DNA of 64,000 nt, taken from NCBI GenBank assembly GCA_964016885.1, contig OZ024750.1:30752001-30816000 (forward strand), written 5' to 3'. The notes beneath the pieces are model-generated. The model ran no database searches. It had not been told where the DNA came from and saw nothing but the letters and a program-made list of their open reading frames with translations. Both the position numbers and the translations under genes were made by a program. Each line of letters starts with the position of its first letter. Position 1 is the first letter of the stretch. The stretch is from Eledone cirrhosa. Its lineage: Eukaryota. This document shows, piece by piece, positions 4,513 through 64,000 of this stretch.

Positions 4513-4817
4513 TTATAAACAAAGGTTACATTCGCAGCTACACACGTCAGGGTAATACATCACTGTTTCATGTTGTTCAGCTCCACACAGAGCGATAACT
4601 TCTTTAACTTTGGATGTCCTACTCTGACAGCACTTACAGTGGTTGTCGAATATCTCATTGTAGCTATCGTATTTCTTCCTTGAGAGCAGCTTTGGCATAG
4701 AAATGCTACCACCACATTTACCAGAACAATATGATATTTTCACTTTTTCAACTGAACGGCAATTACTAGTTTTGTTTTCCAGAAACAGGAATTTTGACTT
4801 CAATGTACATTGTATTT
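4513..4817 (-). CDS. Terminal exon: C-terminal cystine knot (CTCK)
   Basis: ttcAG acceptor, phase 1. [36 protein letters not shown] matches the VWF/mucin CTCK pattern (CxGxC, CxCC, CxCxxC). Confidence 0.93.
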
Positions 4818-16800: not shown

Positions 16801-17392
16801 AGATTTCTCTCCCCTCATGGCATAAAATATATACTCTCCTGTTTGAACTGTTAAAGGCGATTGATTTGGTATAAAACTAAATACTTTAAAATATTTACTT
16901 TGCTATTCTATCATTTCTATTGTTTAATTGTTCATTTAGTGAACATTTATTTTACACATATATTTTACATATATTTCACATCAATTTCACATAAATTTCA
17001 CATACATTTCACATAAATTTCACATACATTTCACATCAATTTCACATACATTTCACATCAATTTCACATACATTTTATATATATTTCACATTTATTTCAC
17101 ACATAAATTATATATATATTCCACATATATTTCACACATATATTTTATATATATTCCACATTTATTTCACATTTATTTCCTATTATTTTGGTGACAGATG
17201 CAGCTGGGCAAAAATATCTGATTGAATCAGACATTGAAAAACCAGTTACTAAATGAATTAAATAATTACATAGTTCTGTTGATATACTAAAATTGAGATG
17301 CTATTTTTCAAACGTTAAACTAATATATTTCTTCCATGTGCCATTTGTTTTGTTCCTTTTGTTATTTCTGATTACCTTTTACACACACACAC

Positions 17393-17432
<40 letters not shown>

Positions 17433-18263: not shown

Positions 18264-18328
<65 letters not shown>

Positions 18329-24300: not shown

Positions 24301-25528
24301 ACATAACATATACATACATTACATAAAATATACTTAATTTACATTATATACATCATTTACATAACATATACATACTTTACATAAAATACACATCATTTAC
24401 AAAAAATATACATCATTTACATAAAACCCTTTAAGACAATTAGGCTTTCTTTACTATTTAGTTTATATAGCTATCTATCTATATTCATCTTTTTATGGCT
24501 CTTCTACAATGTAATGTTAATAATTCTTATAATTACAAAATCCACAGAAAAATGTGTAAGAAATTACCTTCACATGGAATGAAATTGCAATCAGATGTTT
24601 CTTCTGTTGGTAAATTACAATCATCTTTTCCTTTCTTTAATAGTCTCTTCCTTGATCGAATTCTGTTTCCTGTATCACAGCTCTTGGTACATCCAGTCCA
24701 ACCAGACCAAAGGGAATAAGCACATCCTGAAATTATGATATATTTTATTTTATTTATCGATTGATTGAGAAGATCCCAGACATCATTCAGAGCAGGGGCA
24801 ATAAACACACCCTGAAATTATGATTTTTTTTTTTTATCTAGTTTTATTTATTGATCGATTGTGAAGATCCCAGATGTCATTTGGTTATCAAGTGAGGTGG
24901 AACTCATCAAATCCGACCAAGGAAACAATGTTTCCTTTGGTATTTCCATTGCTGATACTAATTACCAGTCACAACTCCTGGAAGATTAGTTACTAGGAAA
25001 AAACATTGGTATTTCCATTGCTGATACTATTTACCAGTCACAACTCTTGGAAGATTAGTTATTAGGAAAAAGGATTAAACATGAACATTTCTACACTGTC
25101 ATACATACAATACCATACAAACTGATCATATTTCAGAAAGGAATCAATAATTACCTTTACATATATTGTTGGTACATTGTAACATGGCATTATTACAAGT
25201 GCTGAAATACAGAAACAAATTATATCAGGTTAGCTGGTGCCTTAAATATCTTTTTAAAAAATCCCAAATTAAAAGGAAGATATACTATTTTATTAGTAAA
25301 TAACTGTCCCTTACCAGTTATTGCAAGAAATATGAACGATAACACCTTCCTCGATTTTATCAAATTCATGAGCAACTTCTTCTTCACTTGAGGCACCAGT
25401 TCTACCATCTTTTTCTATCCATCCTATTACATTTCCTGGGATGTAACCTAACAGTGCTTCAATATCACATATCTTGAGGACACACACTAGAAATAAAATT
25501 CAAACAATTAATACAGCTAGTAAGTGCC

Positions 25529-25561
<33 letters not shown>

Positions 25562-45800: not shown

Positions 45801-48800
45801 ACCGGCATTAAGCGTGGGACCAATTTGTAATGTGACAGTTCTTTTAGATTTAGCATTAGTTTTCCAGCCAACATTTGGTCTCACATCACTAGGTGATCCG
45901 ACATTAGGACTTAAGGTGATTGCTGTATCAGGGATGAAAGTTTCATCATCCATTGCTTCTGTTATCTCACAGAACACTGTTAAATAAAACAATTACATAT
46001 TATAAAGTGTCAAAATAAAATGATAATAGTACAAATGTTCTATATATGAAGGATAACATATGTAATAATTATTGCATTAATACTCACACTCAGTAGTTCT
46101 TTGGACAGTTGGAACAGCTGTCGAAGTTACAGGTGCTATTGTTGATGACACTGGTGCTATTGTTGATGACACAGGTTCTAGAATTTATAAAGAATATCTA
46201 CTTAGTGAATTGTTTTAGACAATTAAAGCAGATCTTTGCACCAGAATAATTGTAAAGAAAATAAAATGAAATATCCTAGATTTCATAGTGAATCTAATCT
46301 TTTAAATATTTGAAAATTAGAGCGTTCCACATATCCATAAGTATGTATTTGTAAATTAGAGCGTTCCACATATCCATGAATAAATCTATGTATTTATATG
46401 TTGATTTGTCTAGATGTATAAAAGGTACACAGCTCAATGTCAGTATTATGTTTTTCTTTCCATAAACATTATTGCTACTAAGAAATGTTTTAAGGGAGAT
46501 AAGAATAAATGAAGTAAACTAATTGTTTGATTCAATGTGATATTTATTTTGACTGATGGCTGATAAAAGTTCCAGAAAATTTGGAAGGAAATGTAATAAA
46601 GTAAAATAAAATCAATATGAATTAGATTTTTTACGAAGAATAAGCTGCTGGTAGAAAGCGATATCATGTAGAAACCACAGAAAATAGTGGAGATTCAAAT
46701 ATTTGTATTAATAGTTGAACATGACATTAAGTTTGAAAAATTATTATTGATACAATATTTAATGCCAGTAATAAACGTATGAATTACAATAGGAAAATTA
46801 TATATGAATGAAACAAATTTACAAATTTTTAAAGAACTCCCTTCAGATAGATATGTCTTTCAATTAAATATATAGTTTCCATTTATGTGTGATGTAGGAA
46901 TGAAGCACTTGCCTGATTAATTATACATATGAAATATACCAGCTTTTATGTAATTGTTAGATGTTAACTGGGATTGTTTCAAAATGAGTCCTTATAAAAG
47001 AACTGTAAATTTTAAAAACAAAACTAGAGATCCAAGTTGCAAATTAATGAAGGTTTATTGGAATTACCAAATATACAGCCATACATATATATTGAAAGAT
47101 TTATCTACATTGATTCATGAGGAAAGTCATTTAACATAAAACTCACGTTGACTAGTTGTTGGTACACTTGATACAACTGCTGAAGTGGCTGGTGCCAGTG
47201 TTGTTGTAAGAGGATCTGAAGTTTAGGAAAGAAATCACAATAATCAAAATCTATGTGACTTTACACATCAGTTGTAAATAAAGATGAGTTGCATCAGGAT
47301 TAATAGAAATAAATAAATAGATTGGAATTATCACTTACGTTTACAGATTTTGGCAGACACAGATACGACCATATCTTCTGTGATATCATCAGCTTCAATT
47401 ACAATCGTCACAGTTTCTTGACCATTACCACTTGGAATACCAACTGGTCTATCTGGGGTTGATGTCTGTAGAATGGATTTACATTTTTTATTAATGATAA
47501 GATTAAAATAAACAGTGATCGTCAAAAAATATAGACAATGTCGAAATTCCATTAATGAATGAAATAGAACACTGTCTGAATTATATGTCCTTATATTCTG
47601 TAAATTCTAGAATATCATTATATGAATTGAAATATTAATATAAAGGAAGATACATATGAAATAAGTAGAAAGAAATATGAAACTTGAATGAAAAAATCAC
47701 CATCAGATTACCTTGATTGTGTATTCTGTTGAAGGATTTGATAACAAAACAGTATATGATTTCACATTTTCATGGTCAACAAGGCTTATTGTTCCACCGG
47801 CATTAAGCGTGGGACCAATTTGTAATGTGACAGTTCTTTTAGATTTAGCATTAGTTTTCCAGCCAACATTTGGTCTCACATCACTAGGTGATCCGACATT
47901 AGGACTTAAGGTGATTGCTGTATCAGGGATGAAAGTTTCATCATCCATTGCTTCTGTTATCTCACAGAACACTGTTAAATAAAACAATTACATATTATAA
48001 AGTGTCAAAATAAAATGATAATAGTACAAATGTTCTATATATGAAGGATAACATATGTAATAATTATTGCATTAATACTCACACTCAGTAGTTCTTTGGA
48101 CAGTTGGAACAGCTGTCGAAGTTACAGGTGCTATTGTTGATGACACAGGTGCTATTGTTGATGACACAGGTTCTAGAATTTAGAAAGAATATCTACTTAG
48201 TGAATTGTTTTAGACAATTAAAGCAGATCTTTGCACCAGAATAATTGTAAAGAAAATAAAATGAAATATCCTAGATTTCATAGTGAATCTAATCTTTTAA
48301 ATATTTGAAAATTAGAGCGTTCCACATATCCATAAGTATATATTTGTAAATTAGAGCGTTCCACATATCCATGAATAAATCTATGTATTTATATGTTGAT
48401 TTGTCTAGATGTATAAAAGGTACACAGCTCAATGTCAGTATTATGTTTTTCTTTACATAAACATTATTGCTACTAAGAAATGTTTTAAGGGAGATAAGAA
48501 TAAATGAAGTAAACTAATTGTTTGATTCAATGTGATATTTATTTTGACTGATGGCTGATAAAAGTTCCAGAAAATTTGGAAGGAAATGTAATAAAGTAAA
48601 ATAAAATCAATATGAATTAGATTTTTTACGAAGAATAAGCTGCTGGTAGAAAGCGATATCATGTAGAAACCACAGAAAATAGTGGAGATTCAAATATTTG
48701 TATTAATAGTTGAACATGACATTAAGTTTGAAGAATTATTATTGATACAATATTTATAAACCACATTAATATAATGCCAGTAATAAACGAATGAATTACA

Positions 48801-51800
48801 ATAGGAAAATTATATATGAATGAGACAAATTTACAAATTTTTAAAGAACTCCCTTCAGATAGATATGTCTTTCAATTAAATATATAGTTTCCATTTATGT
48901 GTGATGTAGGAATGAAGCACTTGCCTGATTAATTATACATATGAAATATACCAGCTTTTATGTAATTGTTAGATGTTAACTGGGATTGTTTCAAAATGAG
49001 TCCTTATAAAAGAACTGTAAATTTTAAAAACAAAACTAGAGATCCAAGTTGCAAATTAATGAAGGTTTATTGGAATTACCAAATATACAGCCATACATAT
49101 ATATTGAAAGATTTATCTACATTGATTCATGAGGAAAGTCATTTAACATAAAACTCACGTTGACTAGTGGTTGGTACACTTGATACAACTGCTGAAGTGG
49201 CTGGTGCCAGTGTTGTTGTAAGAGGATCTGAAGTTTAGGAAAGAAATCACAATAATCAAAATCTATGTGACTTTACAAATCAGTTGTAAATAAAGATGAG
49301 TTGCATCAGGATTAATAGAAATAAATAAATAGATTGGAATTATCACTTACGTTTACAGATTTTGGCAGACACAGATACGACCATATCTTCTGTGATATCA
49401 TCAGCTTCAATTACAATCGTCACAGTTTCTTGACCATTACCACTTGGAATACCAACTGGTCTATCTGGGGTTGATGTCTGTAGAATGGATTTACATTTTT
49501 TATTAATGATAAGATTAAAATAAACAGTGATCGTCAAAAAATATAGACAATGTCGAAATTCCATTAATGAATGAAATAGAACACTGTCTGAATTATATGT
49601 CCTTATATTCTGTAAATTCTAGAATATCATTATATGAATTGAAATATTAATATAAAGGAAGATACATATGAAATAAGTAGAAAGAAATATGAAACTTGAA
49701 TGAAAAAATCACCATCAGATTACCTTGATTGTGTATTCTGTTGAAGGATTTGATAACAAAACAGTATATGATTTCACATTTTCATGGTCAACAAGGCTTA
49801 TTGTTCCACCGGCATTAAGCGTGGGACCAATTTGTAATGTGACAGTTCTTTTAGATTTAGCATTAGTTTTCCAGCCAACATTTGGTCTCACATCACTAGG
49901 TGATCCGACATTAGGACTTAAGGTGATTGCTGTATCAGGGATGAAAGTTTCATCATCCATTGCTTCTGTTATCTCACAGAACACTGTTAATTAAAACAAT
50001 TACATATTATAAAGTGTCAAAATAAAATGATAATAGTACAAATGTTCTATATATGAAGGATAACATATGTAATAATTATTGCATTAATACTCACACTCAG
50101 TAGTTCTTTGGACAGTTGGAACAGCTGTCGAAGTTACAGGTGCTATTGTTGATGACACAGGTGCTATTGTTGATGACACAGGTTCTAGAATTTAGAAAGA
50201 ATATCTACTTAGTGAATTGTTTTAGACAATTAAAGCAGATCTTTGCACCAGAATAATTGTAAAGAAAATAAAATGAAATATCCTAGATTTCATAGTGAAT
50301 CTAATCTTTTAAATATTTGAAAATTAGAGCGTTCCACATATCCATAAGTATGTATTTGTAAATTAGAGCGTTCCACATATCCATGAATAAATCTATGTAT
50401 TTATATGTTGATTTGTCTAGATGTATAAAAGGTACACAGCTCAATGTCAGTATTATGTTTTTCTTTCCATAAACATTATTGCTACTAAGAAATGTTTTAA
50501 GGGAGATAAGAATAAATGAAGTAAACTAATTGTTTGATTCAATGTGATATTTATTTTGACTGATGGCTGATAAAAGTTCCAGAAAATTTGGAAGGAAATG
50601 TAATAAAGTAAAATAAAATCAATATGAATTAGATTTTTTACGAAGAATAAGCTGCTGGTAGAAAGCGATATCATGTAGAAACCACAGAAAATAGTGGAGA
50701 TTCAAATATTTGTATTAATAGTTGAACATGACATTAAGTTTGAAAAATTATTATTGATACAATATTTAATGCCAGTAATAAACGTATGAATTACAATAGG
50801 AAAATTATATATGAATGAGACAAATTTACAAATTTTTAAAGAACTCCCTTCAGATAGATATGTCTTTCAATTAAATATATAGTTTCCATTTATGTGTGAT
50901 GTAGGAATGAAGCACTTGCCTGATTAATTATACATATGAAATATACCAGCTTTTATGTAATTGTTAGATGTTAACTGGGATTGTTTCAAAATGAGTCCTT
51001 ATAAAAGAACTGTAAATTTTAAAAACAAAACTAGAGATCCAAGTTGCAAATTAATGAAGGTTTATTGGAATTACCAAATATACAGCCATACATATATATT
51101 GAAAGATTTATCTACATTGATTCATGAGGAAAGTCATTTAACATAAAACTCACGTTGACTAGTTGTTGGTACACTTGATACAACTGCTGAAGTGGCTGGT
51201 GCCAGTGTTGTTGTAAGAGGATCTGAAGTTTAGGAAAGAAATCACAATAATCAAAATCTATGTGACTTTACAAATTAGTTGTAAATAAAGATGAGTTGCA
51301 TCAGGATTAATAGAAATAAATAAATAGATTGGAATTATCACTTACGTTTGCAGATTTTGGCAGACACAGATACGACCATATCTTCTGTGATATCATCAGC
51401 TTCAATTACAATCGTCACAGTTTCTTGACCATTACCACTTGGAATACCAACTGGTCTATCTGGGGTTGATGTCTGTAGAATGGATTTATATCTTTTATTA
51501 ATGATAAGATTAAAATAAACAGTGATCGTCAAAAAATATAGACAATGTCGAAATTCCATTAATGAATGAAATAGAACACTGTCTGAATTATATGTCCTTA
51601 TATTCTGTAAATTCTAGAATATCATTATATGAATTGAAATATTAATATAAAGGAAGATACATATGAAATAAGTAGAAAGAAATATGAAACTTGAATGAAA
51701 AAATCACCATCAGATTACCTTGATTGTGTATTCTGTTGAAGGATTTGATAACAAAACAGTATATGATTTCACATTTTCATGGTCAACAAGGCTTATTGTT

Positions 51801-54800
51801 CCACCGGCATTAAGCGTGGGACCAATTTGTAATGTGACAGTTCTTTTAGATTTAGCATTAGTTTTCCAGCCAACATTTGGTCTCACATCACTAGGTGATC
51901 CGACATTAGGACTTAAGGTGATTGCTGTATCAGGGATGAAAGTTTCATCATCCATTGCTTCTGTTATCTCACAGAACACTGTTAATTAAAACAATTACAT
52001 ATTATAAAGTGTCAAAATAAAATGATAATAGTACAAATGTTCTATATATGAAGGATAACATATGTAATAATTATTGCATTAATACTCACACTCAGTAGTT
52101 CTTTGGACAGTTGGAACAGCTGTCGAAGTTACAGGTGCTATTGTTGATGACACAGGTGCTATTGTTGATGACACAGGTTCTAGAATTTAGAAAGAATATC
52201 TACTTAGTGAATTGTTTTAGACAATTAAAGCAGATCTTTGCACCAGAATAATTGTAAAGAAAATAAAATGAAATATCCTAGATTTCATAGTGAATCTAAT
52301 CTTTTAAATATTTGAAAATTAGAGCGTTCCACATATCCATAAGTATGTATTTGTAAATTAGAGCGTTCCACATATCCATGAATAAATCTATGTATTTATA
52401 TGTTGATTTGTCTAGATGTATAAAAGGTACACAGCTCAATGTCAGTATTATGTTTTTCTTTACATAAACATTATTGCTACTAAGAAATGTTTTAAGGGAG
52501 ATAAGAATAAATGAAGTAAACTAATTGTTTGATTCAATGTGATATTTATTTTGACTGATGGCTGATAAAAGTTCCAGAAAATTTGGAAGGAAATGTAATA
52601 AAGTAAAATAAAATCAATATGAATTAGATTTTTTACGAAGAATAAGCTGCTGGTAGAAAGCGATATCATGTAGAAACCACAGAAAATAGTGGAGATTCAA
52701 ATATTTGTATTAATAGTTGAACATGACATTAAGTTTGAAGAATTATTATTGATACAATATTTATAAACCACATTAATATAATGCCAGTAATAAACGAATG
52801 AATTACAATAGGAAAATTATATATGAATGAGACAAATTTACAAATTTTTAAAGAACTCCCTTCAGATAGATATATCTTTCAATTAAATATATAGTTTCCA
52901 TTTATGTGTGATGTAGGAATGAAGCACTTGCCTGATTAATTATACATTTGAAATATACCAGCTTTTATGTAATTGTTAGATGTTAACTGGGATTGTTTCA
53001 AAATGAGTCCTTATAAAAGAAGTGTAAATTTTAAAAACAAAACTAGAGATCCAAGTTGCAAATTAATGAAGGTTTATTGGAATTACCAAATATACAGCCA
53101 TACATATATATTGAAAGATTTATCTACATTGATTCATGAGGAAAGTCATTTAACATAAAACTCACGTTGACTAGTTGTTGGTACACTTGATACAACTGCT
53201 GAAGTGGCTGGTGCCAGTGTTGTTGTAAGAGGATCTGAAGTTTAGGAAAGAAATCACAATAATCAAAATCTATGTGACTTTACAAATCAGTTGTAAATAA
53301 AGATGAGTTGCATCAGGATTAATAGAAATAAATAAATAGATTGGAATTATCACTTACGTTTACAGATTTTGGCAGACACAGATACGACCATATCTTCTGT
53401 GATATCATCAGCTTCAATTACAATCGTCACAGTTTCTTGACCATTACCACTTGGAATACCAACTGGTCTATCTGGGGTTGATGTCTGTAGAATGGATTTA
53501 CATTTTTTATTAATGATAAGATTAAAATAAACAGTGATCGTCAAAAAATATAGACAATGTCGAAATTCCATTAATGAATGAAATAGAACACTGTCTGAAT
53601 TATATGTCCTTATATTCTGTAAATTCTAGAATATCATTATATGAATTGAAATATTAATATAAAGGAAGATACATATGAAATAAGTAGAAAGAAATATGAA
53701 ACTTGAATGAAAAAATCACCATCAGATTACCTTGATTGTGTATTCTGTTGAAGGATTTGATAACAAAACAGTATATGATTTCACATTTTCATGGTCAACA
53801 AGGCTTATTGTTCCACCGGCATTAAGCGTGGGACCAATTTGTAATGTGACAGTTCTTTTAGATTTAGCATTAGTTTTCCAGCCAACATTTGGTCTCACAT
53901 CACTAGGTGATCCGACATTAGGACTTAAGGTGATTGCTGTATCAGGGATGAAAGTTTCATCATCCATTGCTTCTGTTATCTCACAGAACACTGTTAAATA
54001 AAACAATTACATATTATAAAGTGTCAAAATAAAATGATAATAGTACAAATGTTCTATATATGAAGGATAACATATGTAATAATTATTGCATTAATACTCA
54101 CACTCAGTAGTTCTTTGGACAGTTGGAACAGCTGTCGAAGTTACAGGTGCTTTTGTTGATGACACAGGTGCTATTGTTGATGACACAGGTTCTAGAATTT
54201 AGAAAGAATATCTACTTAGTGAATTGTTTTAGACAATTAAAGCAGATCTTTGCACCAGAATAATTGTAAAGAAAATAAAATGAAATATCCTAGATTTCAT
54301 AGTGAATCTAATCTTTTAAATATTTGAAAATTAGAGCGTTCCACATATCCATAAGTATGTATTTGTAAATTAGAGCGTTCCACATATCCATGAATAAATC
54401 TATGTATTTATATGTTGATTTGTCTAGATGTATAAAAGGTACACAGCTCAATGTCAGTATTATGTTTTTCTTTACATAAACATTATTGCTACTAAGAAAT
54501 GTTTTAAGGGAGATAAGAATAAATGAAGTAAACTAATTGTTTGATTCAATGTGATATTTATTTTGACTGATGGCTGATAAAAGTTCCAGAAAATTTGGAA
54601 GGAAATGTAATAAAGTAAAATGAAATCAATATGAATTAGATTTTTTACGAAGAATAAACTGCTGGTAGAAAGCGATATCATGTAGAAACCACAGAAAATA
54701 GTGGAGATTCAAATATTTGTATTAATAGTTGAACATGACATTAAGTTTGAAGAATTATTATTGATACAATATTTATAAACCACATTAATATAATGCCAGT

Positions 54801-57800
54801 AATAAACGAATGAATTACAATAGGAAAATTATATATGAATGAGACAAATTTACAAATTTTTAAAGAACTCCCTTCAGATAGATATGTCTTTCAATTAAAT
54901 ATATAGTTTCCATTTATGTGTGATGTAGGAATGAAGCACTTGCCTGATTAATTAAACATATGAAATATACCAGCTTTTATGTAATTGTTAGATGTTAACT
55001 GGGATTGTTTCAAAATGAGTCCTTATAAAAGAAGTGTAAATTTTAAAAACAAAACTAGAGATCCAAGTTGCAAATTAATGAAGGTTTATTGGAATTACCA
55101 AATATACAGCCATACATATATATTGAAAGATTTATCTACATTGATTCATGAGGAAAGTCATTTAACATAAAACTCACGTTGACTAGTTGTTGGTACACTT
55201 GATACAACTGCTGAAGTGGCTGGTGCCAGTGTTGTTGTAAGAGGATCTGAAGTTTAGGAAAGGAATCACAATAATCAAAATCTATGTGACTTTACAAATC
55301 AGTTGTAAATAAAGATGAGTTGCATCAGGATTAATAGAAATAAATAAATAGTTTGGAATTATCACTTACGTTTACAGATTTTGGCAGACACAGATACGAC
55401 CAAATCTTCTGTGATATCATCAGCTTCAATTACAATCGTCACAGTTTCTTGACCATTACCACTTGGAATACCAACTGGTCTATCTGGGGTTGATGTCTGT
55501 AGAATGGATTTACATTTTTTATTAATGATAAGATTAAAATAAACAGTGATCGTCAAAAAAATAGACAATGTCGAAATTCCATTAATGAATGAAATAGAAC
55601 ACTGTCTGAATTATATGTCCTTATATTCTGTAAATTCTAGAATATCATTATATGAATTGAAATATTAATATAAAGGAAGATACATATGAAATAAGTAGAA
55701 AGAAATATGAAACTTGAATGAAAAAATCACCATCAGATTACCTTGATTGTGTATTCTGTTGAAGGATTTGATAACAAAACAGTATATGATTTCACATTTT
55801 CATGGTCAACAAGGCTTATTGTTCCACCGGCATTAAGCGTGGGACCAATTTGTAAAGTGACAGTTCTTTTAGATTTAGCATTAGTTTTCCAGCCAACATT
55901 TGGTCTCACATCACTAGGTGATCCGACATTAGGACTTAAGGTGATTGCTGTATCAGGGATGAAAGTTTCATCATCCATTGCTTCTGTTATCTCACAGAAC
56001 ACTGTTAAATAAAACAATTACATATTATAAAGTGTCAAAATAAAATGATAATAGTACAAATGTTCTATATATGAAGGATAACATATGTAATAATTATTGC
56101 ATTAATACTCACACTCAGTAGTTCTTTGGACAGTTGGAACAGCTGTCGAAGTTACAGGTGCTATTGTTGATGACACAGGTGCTATTGTTGATGACACAGG
56201 TTCTAGAATTTAGAAAGAATATCTACTTAGTGAATTGTTTTAGACAATTAAAGCAGATCTTTGCACCAGAATAATTGTAAAGAAAATAAAATGAAATATC
56301 CTAGATTTCATAGTGAATCTAATCTTTTAAATATTTGAAAATTAGAGCGTTCCACATATCCATAAGTATGTATTTGTAAATTAGAGCGTTCCACATATCC
56401 ATGAATAAATCTATGTATTTATATGTTGATTTGTCTAGATGTATAAAAGGTACACAGCTCAATGTCAGTATTATGTTTTTCTTTCCATAAACATTATTGC
56501 TACTAAGAAATGTTTTAAGGGAGATAAGAATAAATGAAGTAAACTAATTGTTTGATTCAATGTGATATTTATTTTGACTGATGGCTGATAAAAGTTCCAG
56601 AAAATTTGGAAGGAAATGTAATAAAGTAAAATAAAATCAATATGAATTAGATTTTTTACGAAGAATAAGCTGCTGGTAGAAAGCGATATCATGTAGAAAC
56701 CACAGAAAATAGTGGAGATTCAAATATTTGTATTAATAGTTGAACATGACATTAAGTTTGAAGAATTATTATTGATACAATATTTATAAACCACATTAAT
56801 ATAATGCCAGTAATAAACGAATGAATTACAATAGGAAAATTATATATGAATGAGACAAATTTACAAATTTTTAAAGAACTCCCTTCAGATAGATATATCT
56901 TTCAATTAAATATATAGTTTCCATTTATGTGTGATGTAGGAATGAAGCACATGCCTGATTAATTATACATATGAAATATACCAGCTTTTATGTAATTGTT
57001 AGATGTTAACTGGGATTGTTTCAAAATGAGTCCTTATAAAAGAAGTGTAAATTTTAAAAACAAAACTAGAGATCCAAGTTGCAAATTAATGAAGGTTTAT
57101 TGGAATTACCAAATATACAGCCATACATATATATTGAAAGATTTATCTACATTGATTCATGAGGAAAGTCATTTAACATAAAACTCACGTTGACTAGTTG
57201 TTGGTACACTTGATACAACTGCTGAAGTGGCTGGTGCCAGTGTTGTTGTAAGAGGATCTGAAGTTTAGGAAAGAAATCACAATAATCAAAATCTATGTGA
57301 CTTTACAAATCAGTTGTAAATAAAGATGAGTTGCATCAGGATTAATAGAAATAAATAAATAGATTGGAATTATCACTTACGTTTACAGATTTTGGCAGAC
57401 ACAGATACGACCATATCTTCTGTGATATCATCAGCTTCAATTACAATCGTCACAGTTTCTTGACCATTACCACTTGGAATACCAACTGGGCTATCTGGGG
57501 TTGATGTCTGTAGAATGGATTTACATTTTTTATTAATGATAAGATTAAAATAAACAGTGATCGTCAAAAAATATAGACAATGTCGAAATTCCATTAATGA
57601 ATGAAATAGAACACTGTCTGAATTATATGTCCTTATATTCTGTAAATTCTAGAATATCATTATATGAATTGAAATATTAATATAAAGGAAGATACATATG
57701 AAATAAGTAGAAAGAAATATGAAACTTGAATGAAAAAATCACCATCAGATTACCTTGATTGTGTATTCTGTTGAAGGATTTGATAACAAAACAGTATATG

Positions 57801-60800
57801 ATTTCACATTTTCATGGTCAACAAGGCTTATTGTTCCACCGGCATTAAGCGTGGGACCAATTTGTAATGTGACAGTTCTTTTAGATTTAGCATTAGTTTT
57901 CCAGCCAACATTTGGTCTCACATCACTAGGTGATCCGACATTAGGACTTAAGGTGATTGCTGTATCAGGGATGAAAGTTTCATCATCCATTGCTTCTGTT
58001 ATCTCACAGAACACTGTTAAATAAAACAATTACATATTATAAAGTGTCAAAATAAAATGATAATAGTACAAATGTTCTATATATGAAGGATAACATATGT
58101 AATAATTATTGCATTAATACTCACACTCAGTAGTTCTTTGGACAGTTGGAACAGCTGTCGAAGTTACAGGTGCTATTGTTGATGACACAGGTGCTATTGT
58201 TGATGACACAGGTTCTAGAATTTAGAAAGAATATCTACTTAGTGAATTGTTTTAGACAATTAAAGCAGATCTTTGCACCAGAATAATTGTAAAGAAAATA
58301 AAATGAAATATCCTAGATTTCATAGTGAATCTAATCTTTTAAATATTTGAAAATTAGAGCGTTCCACATATCCATAAGTATGTATTTGTAAATTAGAGCG
58401 TTCCACATATCCATGAATAAATCTATGTATTTATATGTTGATTTGTCTAGATGTATAAAAGGTACACAGCTCAATGTCAGTATTATGTTTTTCTTTACAT
58501 AAACATTATTGCTACTAAGAAATGTTTTAAGGGAGATAAGAATAAATGAAGTAAACTAATTGTTTGATTCAATGTGATATTTATTTTGACTGAAGGCTGA
58601 TAAAAGTTCCAGAAAATTTGGAAGGAAATGTAATAAAGTAAAATGAAATCAATATGAATTAGATTTTTTACGAAGAATAAACTGCTGGTAGAAAGCGATA
58701 TCATGTAGAAACCACAGAAAATAGTGGAGATTCAAATATTTGTATTAATAGTTGAACATGACATTAAGTTTGAAGAATTATTATTGATACAATATTTATA
58801 AACCACATTAATATAATGCCAGTAATAAACGAATGAATTACAATAGGAAAATTATATATGAATGAGACAAATTTACAAATTTTTAAAGAACTCCCTTCAG
58901 ATAGATATGTCTTTCAATTAAATATATAGTTTCCATTTATGTGTGATGTAGGAATGAAGCACTTGCCTGATTAATTATACATATGAAATATACCAGCTTT
59001 TATGTAATTGTTAGATGTTAACTGGGATTGTTTCAAAATGAGTCCTTATAAAAGAAGTGTAAATTTTAAAAACAAAACTAGAGATCCAAGTTGCAAATTA
59101 ATGAAGGCTTATTTGAATTACCAAATATACAGCCATACATATATATTGAAAGATTTATCTACATTGATTCATGAGGAAAGTCATTTAACATAAAACTCAC
59201 GTTGACTAGTTGTTGGTACACTTGATACAACTGCTGAAGTGGCTGGTGCCAGTGTTGTTGTAAGAGGATCTGAAGTTTAGGAAAGAAATCACAATAATCA
59301 AAATCTATGTGACTTTACAAATCAGTTGTAAATAAAGATGAGTTGCATCAGGATTAATAGAAATAAATAAATAGATTGGAATTATCACTTACGTTTACAG
59401 ATTTTGGCAGACACAGATACGACCATATCTTCTGTGATATCATCAGCTTCAATTACAATCGTCACAGTTTCTTGACCATTACCACTTGGAATACCAACTG
59501 GTCTATCTGGGGTTGATGTCTGTAGAATGGATTTACATTTTTTATTAATGATAAGATTAAAATAAACAGTGATCGTCAAAAAATATAGACAATGTCGAAA
59601 TTCCATTAATGAATGAAATAGAACACTGTCTGAATTATATGTCCTTATATTCTGTAAATTCTAGAATATCATTATATGAATTGAAATATTAATATAAAGG
59701 AAGATACATATGAAATAAGTAGAAAGAAATATGAAACTTGAATGAAAAAATCACCATCAGATTACCTTGATTGTGTATTCTGTTGAAGGATTTGATAACA
59801 AAACAGTATATGATTTCACATTTTCATGGTCAACAAGGCTTATTGTTCCACCGGCATTAAGCGTGGCACCAATTTGTAAAGTGACAGTTCTTTTAGATTT
59901 AGCATTAGTTTTCCAGCCAACATTTGGTCTCACATCACTAGGTGATCCGACATTAGGACTTAAGGTGATTGCTGTATCAGGGATGAAAGTTTCATCATCC
60001 ATTGCTTCTGTTATCTCACAGAACACTGTTAATTAAAACAATTACATATTATAAAGTGTCAAAATAAAATGATAATAGTACAAATGTTCTATATATGAAG
60101 GATAACATATGTAATAATTATTGCATTAATACTCACACTCAGTAGTTCTTTGGACAGTTGGAACAGCTGTCGAAGTTACAGGTGCTATTGTTGATGACAC
60201 AGGTGCTATTGTTGATGACACAGGTTCTAGAATTTAGAAAGAATATCTACTTAGTGAATTGTTTTAGACAATTAAAGCAGATCTTTGCACCAGAATAATT
60301 GTAAAGAAAATAAAATGAAATATCCTAGATTTCATAGTGAATCTAATCTTTTAAATATTTGAAAATTAGAGCGTTCCACATATCCATAAGTATGTATTTG
60401 TAAATTAGAGCGTTCCACATATCCATGAATAAATCTATGTATTTATATGTTGATTTGTCTAGATGTATAAAAGGTACACAGCTCAATGTCAGTATTATGT
60501 TTTTCTTTACATAAACATTATTGCTACTAAGAAATGTTTTAAGGGAGATAAGAATAAATGAAGTAAACTAATTGTTTGATTCAATGTGATATTTATTTTG
60601 ACTGATGGCTGATAAAAGTTCCAGAAAATTTGGAAGGAAATGTAATAAAGTAAAATAAAATCAATATGAATTAGATTTTTTACGAAGAATAAGCTGCTGG
60701 TAGAAAGCGATATCATGTAGAAACCACAGAAAATAGTGGAGATTCAAATATTTGTATTAATAGTTGAACATGACATTAAGTTTGAAGAATTATTATTGAT

Positions 60801-63800
60801 ACAATATTTATAAACCACATTAATATAATGCCAGTAATAAACGAATGAATTACAATAGGAAAATTATATATGAATGAGACAAATTTACAAATTTTTAAAG
60901 AACTCCCTTCAGATAGATATGTCTTTCAATTAAATATATAGTTTCCATTTATGTGTGATGTAGGAATGAAGCACTTGCCTGATTCATTATACATATGAAA
61001 TATACCAGCTTTTATGTAATTGTTAGATGTTAACTGGGATTGTTTCAAAATGAGTCCTTATAAAAGAAGTGTAAATTTTAAAAACAAAACTAGAGATCCA
61101 AGTTGCAAATTAATGAAGGTTTATTGGAATTACCAAATATACAGCCATACATATATATTGAAAGATTTATCTACATTGATTCATGAGGAAAGTCATTTAA
61201 CATAAAACTCACGTTGACTAGTTGTTGGTACACTTGATACAACTGCTGAAGTGGCTGGTGCCAGTGTTGTTGTAAGAGGATCTGAAGTTTAGGAAAGGAA
61301 TCACAATAATCAAAATCTATGTGACTTTACAAATCAGTTGTAAATAAAGATGAGTTGCATCAGGATTAATAGAAATAAATAAATAGATTGGAATTATCAC
61401 TTACGTTTACAGATTTTGGCAGACACAGATACGACCATATCTTCTGTGATATCATCAGCTTCAATTACAATCGTCACAGTTTCTTGACCATTACCACTTG
61501 GAATACCAACTGGTCTATCTGGGGTTGATGTCTGTAGAATGGATTTACATTTTTTATTAATGATAAGATTAAAATAAACAGTGATCGTCAAAAAATATAG
61601 ACAATGTCGAAATTCCATTAATGAATGAAATAGAACACTGTCTGAATTATATGTCCTTATATTCTGTAAATTCTAGAATATCATTATATGAATTGAAATA
61701 TTAATATAAAGGAAGATACATATGAAATAAGTAGAAAGAAATATGAAACTTGAATGAAAAAATCACCATCAGATTACCTTGATTGTGTATTCTGTTGAAG
61801 GATTTGATAACAAAACAGTATATGATTTCACATTTTCATGGTCAACAAGGCTTATTGTTCCACCGGCATTAAGCGTGGGACCAATTTGTAATGTGACAGT
61901 TCTTTTAGATTTAGCATTAGTTTTCCAGCCAACATTTGGTCTCACATCACTAGGTGATCCGACATTAGGACTTAAGGTGATTGCTGTATTAGGGATGAAA
62001 GTTTCATCATCCATTGCTTCTGTTATCTCACAGAACACTGTTAAATAAAACAATTACATATTATAAAGTGTCAAAATAAAATGATAATAGTACAAATGTT
62101 CTATATATGAAGGATAACATATGTAATAATTATTGCATTAATACTCACACTCAGTAGTTCTTTGGACAGTTGGAACAGCTGTCGAAGTTACAGGTGCTAT
62201 TGTTGATGACACTGGTGCTATTGTTGATGACACAGGTTCTAGAATTTAGAAAGAATATCTACTTAGTGAATTGTTTTAGACAATTAAAGCAGATCTTTGC
62301 ACCAGAATAATTGTAAAGAAAATAAAATGAAATATCCTAGATTTCATAGTGAATCTAATCTTTTAAATATTTGAAAATTAGAGCGTTCCACATATCCATA
62401 AGTATGTATTTGTAAATTAGAGCGTTCCACATATCCATGAATAAATCTATGTATTTATATGTTGATTTGTCTAGATGTATAAAAGGTACACAGCTCAATG
62501 TCAGTATTATGTTTTTCTTTCCATAAACATTATTGCTACTAAGAAATGTTTTAAGGGAGATAAGAATAAATGAAGTAAACTAATTGTTTGATTCAATGTG
62601 ATATTTATTTTGACTGATGGCTGATAAAAGTTCCAGAAAATTTGGAAGGAAATGTAATAAAGTAAAATAAAATCAATATGAATTAGATTTTTTACGAAGA
62701 ATAAGCTGCTGGTAGAAAGCGATATTATGTAGAAACCACAGAAAATAGTGGAGATTCAAATATTTGTATTAATAGTTGAACATGACATTAAGTTTGAAGA
62801 ATTATTATTGATACAATATTTATAAACCACATTAATATAATGCCAGTAATAAACGAATGATTTACAATAGGAAAATTATATATGAATGAGACAAATTTAC
62901 AAATTTTTAAAGAACTCCCTTCAGATAGATATGTCTTTCAATTAAATATATAGTTTCCATTTATGTGTGATGTAGGAATGAAGCACTTGCCTGATTAATT
63001 ATACATATGAAATATACCAGCTTTTATGTAATTGTTAGATGTTAACTGGGATTGTTTCAAAATGAGTCCTTATAAAAGAACTGTAAATTTTAAAAACAAA
63101 ACTAGAGATCCAAGTTGCAAATTAATGAAGGTTTATTGGAATTACCAAATATACAGCCATACATATATATTGAAAGATTTATCTACATTGATTCATGTGG
63201 AAAGTCATTTAACATAAAACTCACGTTGACTAGTTGTTGGTACACTTGATACAACTGCTGAAGTGGCTGGTGCCAGTGTTGTTGTAAGAGGATCTGAAGT
63301 TTAGGAAAGAAATCACAATAATCAAAATCTATGTGACTTTACAAATCAGTTGTAAATAAAGATGAGTTGCATCAGGATTAATAGAAATAAATAAATAGAT
63401 TGGAATTATCACTTACGTTTACAGATTTTGGCAGACACAGATACGACCATATCTTCTGTGATATCATCAGCTTCAATTACAATCGTCACAGTTTCTTGAC
63501 CATTACCACTTGGAATACCAACTGGTCTATCTGGGGTTGATGTCTGTAGAATGGATTTACATTTTTTATTAATGATAAGATTAAAATAAACAGTGATCGT
63601 CAAAAAATATAGACAATGTCGAAATTCCATTAATGAATGAAATAGAACACTGTCTGAATTATATGTCCTTATATTCTGTAAATTCTAGAATATCATTATA
63701 TGAATTGAAATATTAATATAAAGGAAGATACATATGAAATAAGTAGAAAGAAATATGAAACTTGAATGAAAAAATCACCATCAGATTACCTTGATTGTGT

Positions 63801-64000
63801 ATTCTGTTGAAGGATTTGATAACAAAACAGTATATGATTTCACATTTTCATGGTCAACAAGGCTTATTGTTCCACCGGCATTAAGCGTGGGACCAATTTG
63901 TAATGTGACAGTTCTTTTAGATTTAGCATTAGTTTTCCAGCCAACATTTGGTCTCACATCACTAGGTGATCCGACATTAGGACTTAAGGTGATTGCTGTA
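4513..64000 (-). CDS. Giant secreted mucin / SCO-spondin-hemolectin-like gene, 5'-incomplete (discoidin-like array + PTS region + TSP1/TIL/VWC + C-terminal cystine knot)
   Basis: About 60 exons with AG acceptors and GT donors (one GC) and consistent phases, joining into one stop-free frame that ends at TAA 4513-4515. Domain calls come from Cys/Trp motifs. Confidence 0.88.
4890..5110. mobile_element. piggyBac-like MITE
   Basis: Ends ..TAAATACTAAAGGG-TTAA; same family as 14053-14272 and 29334-29553. Confidence 0.7.
5713..5773 (-). CDS. Exon: VWC C-terminal half ([20 protein letters not shown])
   Basis: 61 nt, phase 0 to 1, AG/GT; CCPxC motif. Confidence 0.9.
6360..6860 (-). mobile_element. 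Degenerate LINE RT fragment (RTE-like)
   Basis: VHQGSVFSP motif on the minus strand near 6700-6730. Confidence 0.6.
6966..7150 (+). mobile_element. tRNA-derived SINE family A, full length, with 19-bp TSD
   Basis: A box TGGCAGTATCGG, B box GAGTTCAAATCC; TSD attattctatgtactatat at 6946-6964 and 7151-7169. Confidence 0.92.
7314..7418 (-). CDS. Exon: VWC N-terminal half ([35 protein letters not shown])
   Basis: 105 nt, phase 0-0, AG/GTAAGT; W..CxxCxC..C motif. Confidence 0.9.
7518..7845 (-). mobile_element. 5'-truncated RTE LINE 3' end with (GAT)n tail
   Basis: [30 protein letters not shown], followed by gatgatgat. Confidence 0.88.
8016..8221 (-). CDS. Exon: TIL domain ([40 protein letters not shown]), GC donor
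   Basis: 206 nt, phase 1 to 0; TIL Cys spacing; donor AAG|GCAAGT. Confidence 0.88.
8480..8735. repeat. Degenerate ~40-bp tandem repeat
   Basis: Recurring gtgaacactgatcatcatcaaatgttaactttcc. Confidence 0.7.
9358..9510 (-). CDS. Exon: TSP1 repeat, strongly basic
   Basis: 153 nt, phase 1-1; [50 protein letters not shown]. Confidence 0.88.
9571..9881. mobile_element. Tc1/pogo (Tigger-like) MITE
   Basis: TIRs agtggaacctcagtccatgaac / gttcatggaccgaggttcta, with TA at the flanks. Confidence 0.65.
10250..10510 (+). mobile_element. Degenerate RTE RT fragment
   Basis: [23 protein letters not shown] (cf. FVDLEKAFD). Confidence 0.65.
11000..11149 (-). CDS. Exon: TSP1 repeat
   Basis: 150 nt, phase 1-1; [34 protein letters not shown]. 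Confidence 0.9.
11435..11940 (-). mobile_element. Two SINE family A copies (about 11435-11622 and 11752-11940)
   Basis: aggatgaaaggcaaagttaacct..gatttgaa core in both. Confidence 0.85.
12760..13096. mobile_element. piggyBac-like MITE with a nested ~120-bp LINE 3' end (12792-12910)
   Basis: MITE is split; insert encodes [15 protein letters not shown], has a (TAGA)n tail and a duplicated atatttacta flank. Confidence 0.75.
13193..13363 (-). CDS. Exon: TSP1 repeat
   Basis: 171 nt, phase 1-1; [43 protein letters not shown]. Confidence 0.92.
13419..13604 (-). mobile_element. SINE family A with 18-bp TSD
   Basis: TSD tttaattgaaatattaat at 13401-13418 and 13605-13622. Confidence 0.92.
14053..14272. 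mobile_element. piggyBac-like MITE
   Basis: TTAA-CCCTTTA..TAAACGG-TTAA. Confidence 0.78.
14659..15073. mobile_element. hAT (Charlie-like) MITE with 8-bp TSD
   Basis: TIRs CAGGGGTCTCAAAC / GTTTGAGACCCTTG; TSD ATTTAGAT on both sides. Confidence 0.9.
15430..15479 (-). CDS. Small exon: end of VWC-like module ([16 protein letters not shown])
   Basis: 50 nt, phase 2 to 1; exactly bridges the phases of both neighbouring exons. Confidence 0.82.
15900..16720 (-). mobile_element. RTE LINE 3' fragment containing a ~97-bp tandem amplification (about 16080-16500)
   Basis: [32 protein letters not shown]; the segment repeats about 4 times. Confidence 0.78.
17542..17958. repeat. Foldback element, ~115-bp inverted arms
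   Basis: aaattggtcgttttggaagcctcaacaatgcagatg.. versus ..catctgcattgttgaggcttccaaaacaaccaattt. Confidence 0.85.
17970..18232 (+). mobile_element. SINE family B (5'-truncated), (GAT)n tail
   Basis: tccttgagcaagacactttatttcac..ggaagggcatccagctgtagaaa..gatgatgat. Confidence 0.85.
18447..18593 (-). CDS. Exon: end of TSP1 and start of VWC-like module
   Basis: 147 nt, phase 2-2; [49 protein letters not shown]. Confidence 0.87.
18741..18956. mobile_element. Tc1/mariner-like MITE, almost fully palindromic
   Basis: agggtggccacaaaa / ttttgtggtcaccctg-TA, with long internal complementarity. Confidence 0.75.
20487..20562 (-). CDS. Exon: TSP1 N-terminal half ([25 protein letters not shown])
   Basis: 76 nt, phase 1 to 2; WxxWxxCSxTCG motif. 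Confidence 0.9.
21248..21294 (-). CDS. Small exon ([15 protein letters not shown]), VWC-like
   Basis: 47 nt, phase 2 to 1, cAG/GTAAGT. Confidence 0.85.
22358..22604 (-). CDS. Exon: TIL domain plus start of VWC-like module
   Basis: 247 nt, phase 1 to 2; [44 protein letters not shown]. Confidence 0.93.
23000..23520 (-). mobile_element. Old RTE-like LINE 3' fragment
   Basis: [23 protein letters not shown] on the minus strand. Confidence 0.55.
23987..24160 (-). CDS. Exon: TSP1 repeat
   Basis: 174 nt, phase 1-1; [32 protein letters not shown]. Confidence 0.92.
24568..24726 (-). CDS. Exon: TSP1 repeat
   Basis: 159 nt, phase 1-1; [32 protein letters not shown]. Confidence 0.92.
25155..25201 (-). 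CDS. Small exon ([15 protein letters not shown]), VWC-like
   Basis: 47 nt, phase 2 to 1; completes CNNCTC..C..C. Confidence 0.87.
25315..25486 (-). CDS. Exon: atypical VWC-like N-half ([26 protein letters not shown])
   Basis: 172 nt, phase 1 to 2, stop-free, tAG/GTAAGG. Confidence 0.83.
25656..26044. repeat. Long hairpin, ~175-bp arms, ~21-nt loop
   Basis: ..ttgatatgcccagctcct / aggagctgggcatatcaa..; flanked by (TA)n. Confidence 0.9.
26328..26591. repeat. Two adjacent hairpins (about 26328-26448 and 26456-26591)
   Basis: acggcagagctcaagccgttt / aaacggcttgagctctgccgt; aatacttataaaaagag / ctctttttataagtatt. Confidence 0.8.
26632..26977 (-). mobile_element. SINE family B, full length
   Basis: tRNA-like head ggaggcacatgggttagtggttagagc..gagttcaattctc; near-identical to 17970-18232. 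Confidence 0.88.
27138..27185 (-). CDS. 48-nt Thr/Pro linker exon, copy 2 ([15 protein letters not shown])
   Basis: Phase 1-1, cAG acceptor, CAG|GTTGGT donor. Confidence 0.65.
27420..27597 (-). mobile_element. SINE family A
   Basis: Family core sequence. Confidence 0.85.
28638..28685 (-). CDS. 48-nt Thr/Pro linker exon, copy 1 ([15 protein letters not shown])
   Basis: Duplicate of 27138-27185, 1500 bp away, one substitution (I/V). Confidence 0.65.
29334..29553. mobile_element. piggyBac-like MITE
   Basis: TTAA-CCCTTTAGTATTTA..TAAATGCTAAAGGG-TTAA. Confidence 0.85.
30208..30608 (-). mobile_element. Two tandem SINE family A copies
   Basis: Family core occurs twice. Confidence 0.85.
31503..31629 (-). 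CDS. Exon: C-half of diverged discoidin-like domain ([42 protein letters not shown])
   Basis: 127 nt, phase 0 to 1; same length and same [11 protein letters not shown] end as array exon C. Not in the ORF track. Confidence 0.9.
31660..34460. repeat. 39-bp intronic minisatellite (catacatatattatattaccatacatatatgatataaca)n, degenerate after 34020
   Basis: About 60 copies; source of the spurious [13 protein letters not shown] ORFs. Confidence 0.95.
34066..34252 (-). mobile_element. SINE family A inside the minisatellite
   Basis: Family core; flanked by repeated atatattataat. Confidence 0.88.
34470..36004 (+). mobile_element. Probable non-autonomous Helitron with a tandem partial copy
   Basis: Starts A|TC; ends with hairpin cgtgacc-ctaca-ggtcacg then CTAG|T; a similar end at 35626-35654; 34492-34770 is repeated at 35659-35900. 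Confidence 0.68.
35015..35370. repeat. Large near-palindrome with spacerless centre
   Basis: Centre gagtttagtccctcat|atgagggactaaactc; outer arms about 135 bp. Confidence 0.9.
36250..36445 (-). mobile_element. SINE family A, older copy
   Basis: Family core sequence. Confidence 0.75.
36497..36756 (-). CDS. Exon: N-half of diverged discoidin-like domain ([25 protein letters not shown])
   Basis: 260 nt, phase 1 to 0; paralogous to array exon B. Confidence 0.9.
38281..39385 (-). mobile_element. Cluster of SINE family A copies with a 76-bp tandem repeat of the SINE 3' end (about 38710-39150)
   Basis: Copies at about 38281-38470, 38480-38690 and 39085-39278; 76-bp unit about 6 times. Confidence 0.88.
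39487..39874 (+). mobile_element. SINE family B with expanded (GAT)n tail
   Basis: ggaggcacatggcttagtggtgagagc head; (gat)~20 at 39815-39875. Confidence 0.85.
39918..44120 (-). CDS. Giant mucin-like PTS exon, about 1400 aa, ([18 protein letters not shown])n
   Basis: 4203 nt, phase 1-1, tttctgcAG acceptor, G|GTAAGT donor; lies inside ORF 39772..44169. Confidence 0.92.
40150..43820. repeat. Coding 27-bp VNTR with 36-bp variant units ([12 protein letters not shown])
   Basis: + strand unit acaggggtggatggtattttagtaata, well over 100 copies. Confidence 0.95.
45152..45220 (-). CDS. Array unit 1 exon D: linker [22 protein letters not shown]
   Basis: 69 nt, phase 1-1, cAG/GTGAGT. Confidence 0.85.
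45344..45470 (-). CDS. Array unit 1 exon C: domain C-half [42 protein letters not shown]
   Basis: 127 nt, phase 0 to 1, cAG/GTAAGT. Confidence 0.9.
45717..45976 (-). CDS. Array unit 1 exon B: domain N-half [30 protein letters not shown]
   Basis: 260 nt, phase 1 to 0, cAG/GTAATC. Confidence 0.9.
46088..46177 (-). CDS. Array unit 1 exon A: linker [29 protein letters not shown]
   Basis: 90 nt, phase 1-1, tAG/GTGAGT; internal 21-bp duplication. Confidence 0.85.
47147..48172 (-). CDS. Array unit 2, exons A 48083-48172, B 47712-47971, C 47339-47465, D 47147-47215
   Basis: Near-identical to unit 1; coordinates by offset from the ORF track. Confidence 0.87.
49159..50184 (-). CDS. Array unit 3, exons A 50095-50184, B 49724-49983, C 49351-49477, D 49159-49227
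   Basis: Near-identical copy of unit 1. Confidence 0.87.
51154..52179 (-). CDS. Array unit 4, exons A 52090-52179, B 51719-51978, C 51346-51472, D 51154-51222
   Basis: Near-identical copy of unit 1. Confidence 0.87.
53166..54191 (-). CDS. Array unit 5, exons A 54102-54191, B 53731-53990, C 53358-53484, D 53166-53234
   Basis: Near-identical copy; I>K in exon A. Confidence 0.87.
55178..56202 (-). CDS. Array unit 6, exons A 56113-56202, B 55742-56001, C 55370-55496, D 55178-55246
   Basis: Near-identical copy; M>L in exon C and a 1-bp intronic deletion. Confidence 0.87.
57189..58214 (-). CDS. Array unit 7, exons A 58125-58214, B 57754-58013, C 57381-57507, D 57189-57257
   Basis: Near-identical copy; R>S in exon C. 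Confidence 0.87.
59201..60226 (-). CDS. Array unit 8, exons A 60137-60226, B 59766-60025, C 59393-59519, D 59201-59269
   Basis: Near-identical copy; P>A in exon B. Confidence 0.87.
61213..62238 (-). CDS. Array unit 9, exons A 62149-62238, B 61778-62037, C 61405-61531, D 61213-61281
   Basis: Near-identical copy; D>N in exon B. Confidence 0.87.
63225..64000 (-). CDS. Array unit 10 (partial), exon B from 63790 to beyond 64000, C 63417-63543, D 63225-63293
   Basis: Truncated by the window end. Confidence 0.85.

Follow-up and report, generated by a model that had tools for sequence, protein, structure and literature searches.

A predicted Eledone cirrhosa gene for a mucin-like secreted protein with a discoidin-like array, a basic PTS exon and a cystine-knot tail

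Annotation of gel-forming mucins in invertebrates is poor, because assemblies break up genes of this kind. Lang et al. (2016; PMC4948705) give F5/8 domains as a characteristic feature of mucin-like proteins in lophotrochozoans; according to the same paper, hemolectin has 3 VWD domains, F5/8 and 2 further VWD domains, and some invertebrate mucins group with SCO-spondins. Chick SCO-spondin combines an EMI domain, 3 VWD, 1 FA5/8C, 13 LDLa, 12 TIL, 27 TSR, 7 VWC and 3 EGF modules with a CTCK (PMC8487547), and knot-mediated dimerization is described for VWF and mucins (PMC8487547, PMC10082768). A limpet pedal-mucus protein, P-vulgata_6, carries four TSP1 repeats and a cystine knot (PMC7333891).

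Here we describe a locus of Eledone cirrhosa that resembles each of these systems in part. The window, by which we mean the whole 64,000-nucleotide stretch of DNA analysed, has the base composition of AT-rich animal DNA (GC 32%) and shows about 430 kDa of an apparent invertebrate gel-forming mucin gene intact. Neither this gene nor an octopus array of degenerate discoidin domains was found described in the open-access papers searched.

Gene model, tail modules and charge pattern

From open reading frames, splice-site candidates and direct reading, we predicted a 60-exon gene that lies entirely on the minus strand and runs from 63,999 to a stop codon at 4,513. The spliced model comprises 12,276 nt and encodes 4,091 amino acids in one frame with a single terminal stop. 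All 59 acceptors are AG, and the donors comprise 58 GT and 1 GC. Phase 1 accounts for 42 of the 59 introns, an excess that is usual in modular extracellular genes. The exon joins are predictions from genomic sequence, and the model covers the gene from the array interior to the stop codon; the array continues past the window edge. Contigs from three sequencing runs (18,400-31,650) are colinear with the window through introns, with few substitutions, and are uninformative on splicing.

The first-pass annotation had listed more than 4,000 residues in a defined order of modules, and in the 4,091-residue model the tail modules follow exactly the listed order. The model runs through 10 linker-domain units, a P/T/S-rich (PTS) exon, an eleventh domain, two 48-nt linker exons and the tail modules. 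The tail reads VWC-like, TSP1, TSP1, TIL, VWC-like, TSP1, VWC-like, three TSP1, TIL, VWC and cystine knot. The features, in the order of transcription, are as follows.

45152..63999 (-): array of 2.0-kb four-exon units, 9 full and 1 cut by the window edge; 1,773 aa, pI 4.7
47712..47971 (-): example exon B, from unit 8, encoding the N-terminal two thirds of the domain; phase 1 to 0
47339..47465 (-): example exon C, from unit 8, encoding the C-terminal third of the domain; phase 0 to 1, with the same B-C join as in the O. bimaculoides homologue P0002
39918..44120 (-): PTS exon; 4,203 nt, 1,401 aa, phase 1 to 1, donor GTAAGT
36497..36756 (-): exon B' of the eleventh, diverged domain; the end of its upstream intron resembles that of exon B
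31503..31629 (-): exon C' of the eleventh domain, a predicted exon
28,685-28,638 and 27,185-27,138 (-): two 48-nt linker exons, within a duplicated 424-nt segment
25,486-25,315 and 25,201-25,155 (-): VWC-like module 1; 35/57 aa identical to the end of the octopod record P0030; no Pfam match; exon open
24,726-24,568 and 24,160-23,987 (-): TSP1 repeats 1 and 2; Pfam TSP_1 E 1e-9 and 2e-9
22,604-22,358 and 21,294-21,248 (-): TIL 1 and VWC-like module 2; Pfam TIL E 2e-10, and cysteine pattern
20,562-20,487 and 18,593-18,447 (-): TSP1 repeat 3, in two exons; Pfam TSP_1 E 3e-7 on the first exon
ending in 15,479-15,430 (-): VWC-like module 3; phases and cysteine pattern
13,363-13,193, 11,149-11,000 and 9,510-9,358 (-): TSP1 repeats 4-6; Pfam matches, increasingly basic
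8,221-8,016 (-): TIL 2; Pfam TIL E 3e-7; GC donor GCAAGT at 8,016/8,015
7,418-7,314 and 5,773-5,713 (-): VWC; Pfam VWC E 3e-4, below the cut-off; colinear with the octopod record P0032
4513..4817 (-): terminal exon with the cystine knot, 12 cysteines; stop codon at 4,515-4,513

The tail had been annotated as a TSP1/TIL/VWC/cystine-knot series, and its modules fared unequally in a Pfam run on 16 single exons of the tail and array. All six TSP1 repeats matched TSP_1 or TSP1_spondin (best E 3e-10 to 6e-7), four of them above the TSP_1 cut-off, and both TIL modules were above theirs. The VWC and the knot matched below the cut-off: the knot matched Cys_knot at E 0.002 and Norrin at E 0.005, with the knot cysteines aligned. 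The knot of P0032, which is 69% identical, lies above the Cys_knot cut-off. For the three proximal VWC-like modules, which are short (C-x2-C-x-C-x6-C), the cysteine pattern is the sole support. All 12 knot cysteines are conserved in P0032 and in a further record, P0033, and the twelfth, which faces a non-cysteine in Norrin, is a candidate for an extra interchain bond. Structure prediction for the knot from three sequences gave a mean pLDDT of 36. Two observations support the GC-AG join of TIL 2: P0032 is colinear with the model here, and two peptides of a skin-mucus relative described below abut across it. The 424-nt duplication that contains the two linker exons (28,901-28,476 and 27,399-26,976) is 417/424 identical, and either or both of these exons may be used.

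As previously noted, no VWD domain follows the PTS region: the model is continuous, with no gap for one, and a six-frame scan of the window with four patterns found no VWD, LDLa or CysD motif.

A PTS region of about 1,400 residues had also been annotated, and a single exon encodes it. Its 1,401 residues are 59% P/T/S (22% T, 21% P, 16% S), 15% I, 10% V and 9% K, with neither Cys nor Trp, and 125 K and 6 R stand against 2 D/E (9.4% K+R, 0.1% D+E; pI 11.5). The exon is built from a 27-nt repeat (about 135 copies by TRF), with TKIPSTPVI as the commonest unit. Because of its position in the last unit and its phase, it looks like one hugely expanded linker that takes the place of linker A. The linkers of relatives contain 0-6% K+R and 10-12% I+V, compared with 9.4% and 25% here.

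The first-pass annotation had described a cationic mucin rod. The strong basicity of the PTS stands, and the basic character proved to be wider, extending to the distal TSP1-TIL region and alternating with acidic blocks: the pI is 4.7 in the array, 11.5 in the PTS, 5.2 in the proximal tail, 9.6 from TSP1-4 to VWC and 8.5 in the knot. The last 284 residues carry a net charge of +34, compared with +3 in P0032, and most of this gap lies in TSP1-6 (+18 versus +3; 20 K+R in 51 aa here) and TIL 2 (+9 versus +1). These charges are those of the protein backbone, and sulfated or other acidic O-glycans could offset the PTS lysines. We infer that the protein is a charge-specialised member of its family.

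Octopod relatives and the likely product

An intron-free Logan record (P0032) contains a TSP1-TIL-VWC-knot segment that is colinear with the last 284 residues of the model, with 152/284 identical. A word-index search with this record, covering proteins of up to 2,000 aa, gave 267 candidates and 0 matches. An O. vulgaris transcript labelled SCO-spondin (58773.176632) was detected in skin mucus by mass spectrometry (PMC10138644), and in 17 of its 20 rows in the supplement we could place all ten non-overlapping peptides by eye, in cysteine register, on the tail. These peptides fall on TSP1-1, TIL 1, TSP1-4, TSP1-6, TIL 2 and VWC with identities from 3/11 to 10/12, of which the two weakest placements would not count alone. 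Nine of the ten, again in 17 of 20 rows, are common to the mucin-19-like protein A0A7E6FK29 (LOC115224399). None of the mucus peptides listed in the part of the supplement available to us is identical to the window protein, and 6 + 6 short-motif searches among the listed rows brought up a single peptide, an unrelated one. Mucin-19-like and SCO-spondin-like proteins appear again in another mucus study (PMC11431876).

The relative found in skin mucus shows a clear charge contrast with the window protein. A hand count over the seven peptides that lie between TSP1-4 and VWC gives net charges of -15 in 58773.176632 and +18 here, figures that carry the tryptic bias towards peptides with few K/R. Some A0A7E6FK29 mucus peptides, among 17 of its 54 rows, resemble what we take to be VWD motifs. 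These VWD-like peptides are common to transcripts labelled by oyster XP_011425282, and a tail fragment is labelled by the next accession, XP_011425283; the oyster labels hint that the mucin layout is older than cephalopods.

The protein had been called chimeric on first pass, and as a claim of a new fusion this does not hold. Other octopod records show the same order of tail modules and the same junction of domain, PTS and tail, and mucin-like proteins of lophotrochozoans are described as characterised by F5/8 domains (PMC4948705), so the apparent chimera is, as read from these sequences, an inherited molluscan layout. Particular to this protein are, on the same reading, a very young array, a hydrophobic cationic PTS and a basic distal tail that alternates with acidic blocks.

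With a probability of roughly 55%, we read the product as a secreted mucin-like polymer of the F5/8-bearing, SCO-spondin-related lineage of molluscs and lophotrochozoans: a cystine-knot-dimerised, charge-specialised surface gel that binds polyanions. A polymeric secreted gel had been among the products suggested at the outset, and the presence of a protein with the same tail in O. vulgaris skin mucus (PMC10138644) argues for it. Going by what is known of the family, the cystine knots would pair the chains at their tails, and the dimers would be joined into long polymers, and so into a surface gel, by VWD-C8-TIL units encoded upstream of the window. The PTS exon and the linkers would be densely O-glycosylated and extended, and the TSP1 repeats would be C-mannosylated. 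The discoidin-like domains may act mainly as disulfide-closed spacers or as weak multivalent binders, and may take the place that CysD domains occupy in vertebrate mucins. Since acidic blocks alternate with basic ones, the polymer would cross-link electrostatically with polyanions, which could be sulfated glycans, acidic mucins or microbial surfaces. If the protein is a skin or gut mucin, it would be a well-resolved yet ordinary variant of its family.

A role in egg cement or glue is plausible, if unlikely beside a surface gel. The same gene and polymer would then be a dedicated cationic mucoprotein of the oviducal peripheral gland, or of some other adhesive gland, hardening together with sulfated polysaccharide through complex coacervation. 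[quoted passage not shown] The egg-case proteins of cuttlefish are cationic, rich in cysteine and form networks (PMC4500399), and heparin blocks a K/R-rich cohesive protein of a flatworm (PMC6410801). The shift in the net charge of the distal tail relative to P0032 (+34 versus +3), the 25% I+V of the PTS compared with 10-12% in the linkers of relatives, and the TSP1 x4 and cystine knot of the limpet pedal-mucus protein (PMC7333891) are also consistent with such a role. By contrast, the sole relative of known location was found in skin mucus, and the word 'spondin' is absent from the main text of a paper on the O. maya oviducal gland.

In its fullest form, the cement proposal is doubtful. The cationic mucoprotein of octopus cement or glue would be a single-chain block polyampholyte with an acidic, expanding discoidin-derived array, a hydrophobic lysine-studded rod and a heparin-binding-type TSP1 cluster, and its knot dimers would solidify on sulfated polysaccharide. 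A reversal of charge and the amplification of an exon cassette would have produced it from an ordinary mucin of skin mucus, and its domain would represent a new spacer family in several invertebrates. If the gene does encode a cement protein of the oviducal gland, the old histochemical model of mucoprotein and sulfated polysaccharide would become accessible at the molecular level, and the protein would offer a design for an underwater adhesive.

We consider it improbable that the protein is instead the functional counterpart of SCO-spondin (a neural fibre or matricellular protein) or of hemolectin (haemocyte clotting) and not an external secretion. Its TSP1/TIL/VWC/cystine-knot tail is like that of SCO-spondin (PMC8487547), some invertebrate mucins cluster with SCO-spondins, and hemolectin contains F5/8 (PMC4948705). 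Against SCO-spondin are 6 TSP1 repeats rather than 27, at least 11 discoidin domains rather than 1, a 1,400-residue PTS and no LDLa in the window; against hemolectin is the lack of a VWD pair after the F5/8 region. The location of the nearest relative whose source is known, skin mucus, argues against both and is consistent with a surface gel.

Gene continuity and the discoidin-like array

The array, PTS and tail very probably belong to one gene, as judged from the sequence around the PTS exon and from one octopod record. The consensus phase-1 donor of the PTS exon, GTAAGT, fits the phase-1 acceptor of exon B'; a candidate first exon (an ATG, a hydrophobic core and a donor) was found neither in the 3.2-kb intron between PTS and B' nor in 31,502-25,487; and a single gene model, that of P0030 from the O. 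bimaculoides XP_052821907 cluster, leads from a domain over a PTS linker to the first exon of the tail. It is hardly probable that there are instead two genes or two 3' ends, with the array and PTS reading past 39,918 to a stop at 39,775 and the eleventh domain and tail separate. The PTS frame does stay open for 47 codons beyond the donor, an AATAAA lies at 39,568 and O. bimaculoides XP_052821907 (P0015) is modelled as terminating in its PTS stretch, but the read-through consists of a (CAT)n microsatellite and an interspersed repeat.

Other repeats are frequent in the window. Very high-copy SINE-like interspersed repeats at 26,356-27,681 and 29,450-31,650 reach a summed contig depth of about 10^5-10^6; such repeats are scattered through the introns and, as far as read, are absent from the young 2-kb units. 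Intronic or intergenic minisatellites lie at 1,922-2,383 (66 nt), 38,703-39,156 (76 nt), 16,068-16,423 (97 nt) and 1,085-1,449 (43 nt). The 66-nt minisatellite contains a 159-codon frame that is open by chance, and we rejected the Pfam matches of this frame (1,910-2,386), in which no stretch passes alone. The segments at 1-600 (+) and 7,551-7,916 (-) are fragments that resemble decayed 3' ends of non-LTR retrotransposons; the latter has no Pfam match.

Each array unit contains four exons, linker A (90 nt), B (260 nt), C (127 nt) and linker D (69 nt). Exons B and C together encode a 129-residue domain with one cysteine at each end, and the P/T/S linker comprises about 53 residues per unit. Sequence libraries gave no identification of this domain. 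Pfam PF00754 (F5/8 type C) matched neither the exon halves of the window nor the whole domains of P0002, P0015 and P0030; exon B and alignment A2 both drew 0 matches in PDB sequence searches; an Atlas search with exon B alone gave nothing above 0.80; and a word-index search with exon B gave 91 candidates and 0 matches among proteins of up to 2,000 aa. Searching exon B' against 1.84 billion representatives returned 28 matches: 21 octopus-type, 4 distant multi-domain and 3 chance matches (P0004, P0022 and P0028), which we dropped as repeat-driven on reading. Three of the 19 matches that we looked up are from Octopus bimaculoides. One of them, P0002 (XP_052834281), contains the whole domain with the same B-C join; it is identical to a unit at 125/214 residues, and exon B is 60% identical to it.

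Discoidin-like domains had been proposed on first pass, and the homologue P0002 supports them at the level of the fold. Its predicted structure has a pLDDT above 90 over most of residues 71-190, and its best VIA match is neuropilin-1 (Z 12.6, rmsd 2.7 A, 126 residues), with further structural matches to factor V/VIII C domains, DDR1/2, discoidin I and CBM32. Foldseek returned 48 matches at E<=0.001, mainly to discoidin/CBM32/DOC domains, and Atlas F5/8 clusters at 0.93 agree with a discoidin fold. Judged on the predicted structure of this 58%-identical homologue, the repeated domain is a degenerate discoidin (F5/8 type C) fold, a galactose-binding-like beta-sandwich. The single cysteine at each end is as in F5/8 domains that are closed by an N- to C-terminal cysteine pair. 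The octopus domain is about 25-30 residues shorter than neuropilin and factor VIII domains (matched chains of about 155-160 residues), and on the predicted fold the missing 30 or so residues are likely to be the ligand-binding loops.

The domain also occurs in a second set of records. P0031, an intron-free record of 4,511 aa, has an F5/8 domain recognised by Pfam (E 6e-9). Behind it come about 20 further domains, degenerate and flanked by cysteines, which are set in T-rich linkers, as well as TIL modules and three domains like those of octopus. In hhalign, the octopus-type profile scored 0.1% against the canonical first F5/8 domain of P0031 and 65% against the second domain, and gave no alignment with the third. 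The profile thus fails on the canonical domain, so descent from F5/8 is argued from fold and context and not from sequence. P0031, P0024, P0029, P0003, P0007 and P0018 (IMG) are intron-free, reach 4,511 aa, end in octopus-type domains without a cystine knot and have T/H-rich linkers; going by their sequences, P0031-type records represent a second lineage that uses the same domain family. The discoidin-derived family that escapes Pfam would span the octopods and at least one further intron-free record, which has about 20 degenerate copies. For three diverged copies of exon B (P0006, P0014 and P0021) the listed ENA contig is in each case 212,708 bases long, suggesting that a single contig carries an older, heterogeneous array.

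The units of the window array are nearly identical to one another. Across the eight complete units compared, identity is 99.2-99.8% (mean 99.5%), introns included, and 9/546 exonic columns vary, compared with 24/1,448 ungapped intronic columns; five of the nine exonic changes alter a residue. Nearly all differences between units are substitutions, and several are common to non-adjacent units in a mosaic pattern, which is expected of unequal crossing-over or conversion; a 17-nt deletion is common to units 6 and 8. The 10 copies contain no stop, frameshift or lost splice site. The eleventh domain is more diverged (83/129 residues identical to an array copy, dN/dS 0.68). The intron that splits it measures 4.9 kb, compared with about 0.25 kb in the array units, and contains a 39-nt minisatellite of about 63 copies (2.4 kb; 31,661-34,064). 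We read the array as a very young amplification by unequal crossing-over in which no selection is visible yet, and thus as a snapshot of mucin growth by amplification of a four-exon cassette. That it is inflated by assembly, or an unstable expansion devoid of function, is very improbable: the 99.5% identity, exons as variable as introns, the five of nine nonsynonymous changes and the dN/dS of 0.68 between array and eleventh copies would fit, but the mosaic of substitutions shared between non-adjacent units, the 17-nt deletion in units 6 and 8, the tandem copies also present in O. bimaculoides P0002 and the intact frames and splice sites of all 10 copies argue against it.

Comparison with known systems

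The protein would act like a gel-forming mucin, stands apart from MUC2/MUC5 and from hemolectin and is not classifiable under SCO-spondin. Of the features of gel-forming mucins given by Lang et al. (2016), a large PTS domain is present (1,401 aa in one exon), as is a C-terminal cystine knot (Pfam E 0.002, below the cut-off, with the Norrin alignment). The signal peptide and three N-terminal VWD-C8-TIL units of that class would lie upstream of the window, where the VWD-like peptides of the relative A0A7E6FK29 offer a lead. With MUC2/MUC5 it shares a large single-exon tandem-repeat PTS, VWC and the C-terminal knot (PMC4948705, PMC10082768). It differs from them in that no VWD4 follows the PTS, CysD is absent, TSP1 repeats are present, the PTS is lysine-rich and hydrophobic and the knot has a twelfth cysteine.

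Like lophotrochozoan F5/8 mucins and hemolectin, the protein has central domains of predicted F5/8 fold beside PTS, TIL, VWC and knot. Here, by contrast, at least 11 such domains are present, degenerate and below Pfam detection, together with six TSP1 repeats and no CysD. The mid-protein F5/8 feature of hemolectin is matched by fold, as modelled on P0002, whereas the two VWD-C8-TIL units that follow F5/8 in hemolectin have no equivalent in the window protein. SCO-spondin is similar in its TSP1-TIL-VWC modules ending in a knot and in the discoidin domain upstream of the TSP1 region. The window tail is shorter (6 TSP1, 2 TIL, 1 VWC), the discoidin domains are multiplied and a large PTS exon is added; neither the scan nor the model places an LDLa repeat within the window.

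Among secreted proteins of other invertebrates, P-vulgata_6 is alike by description, as a mollusc secretion with TSP1 and a cystine knot. Mlig-ap1 (PMC6410801) and SepECP (PMC4500399) are strongly basic and network-forming but built from other domain sets, a likeness of principle that is likewise drawn from their descriptions. Also among the closest systems are O. vulgaris/sinensis A0A7E6FK29 and 58773.176632, whose tail peptides, in the rows available, could be placed by eye in register on the window protein, including across the GC-AG junction.
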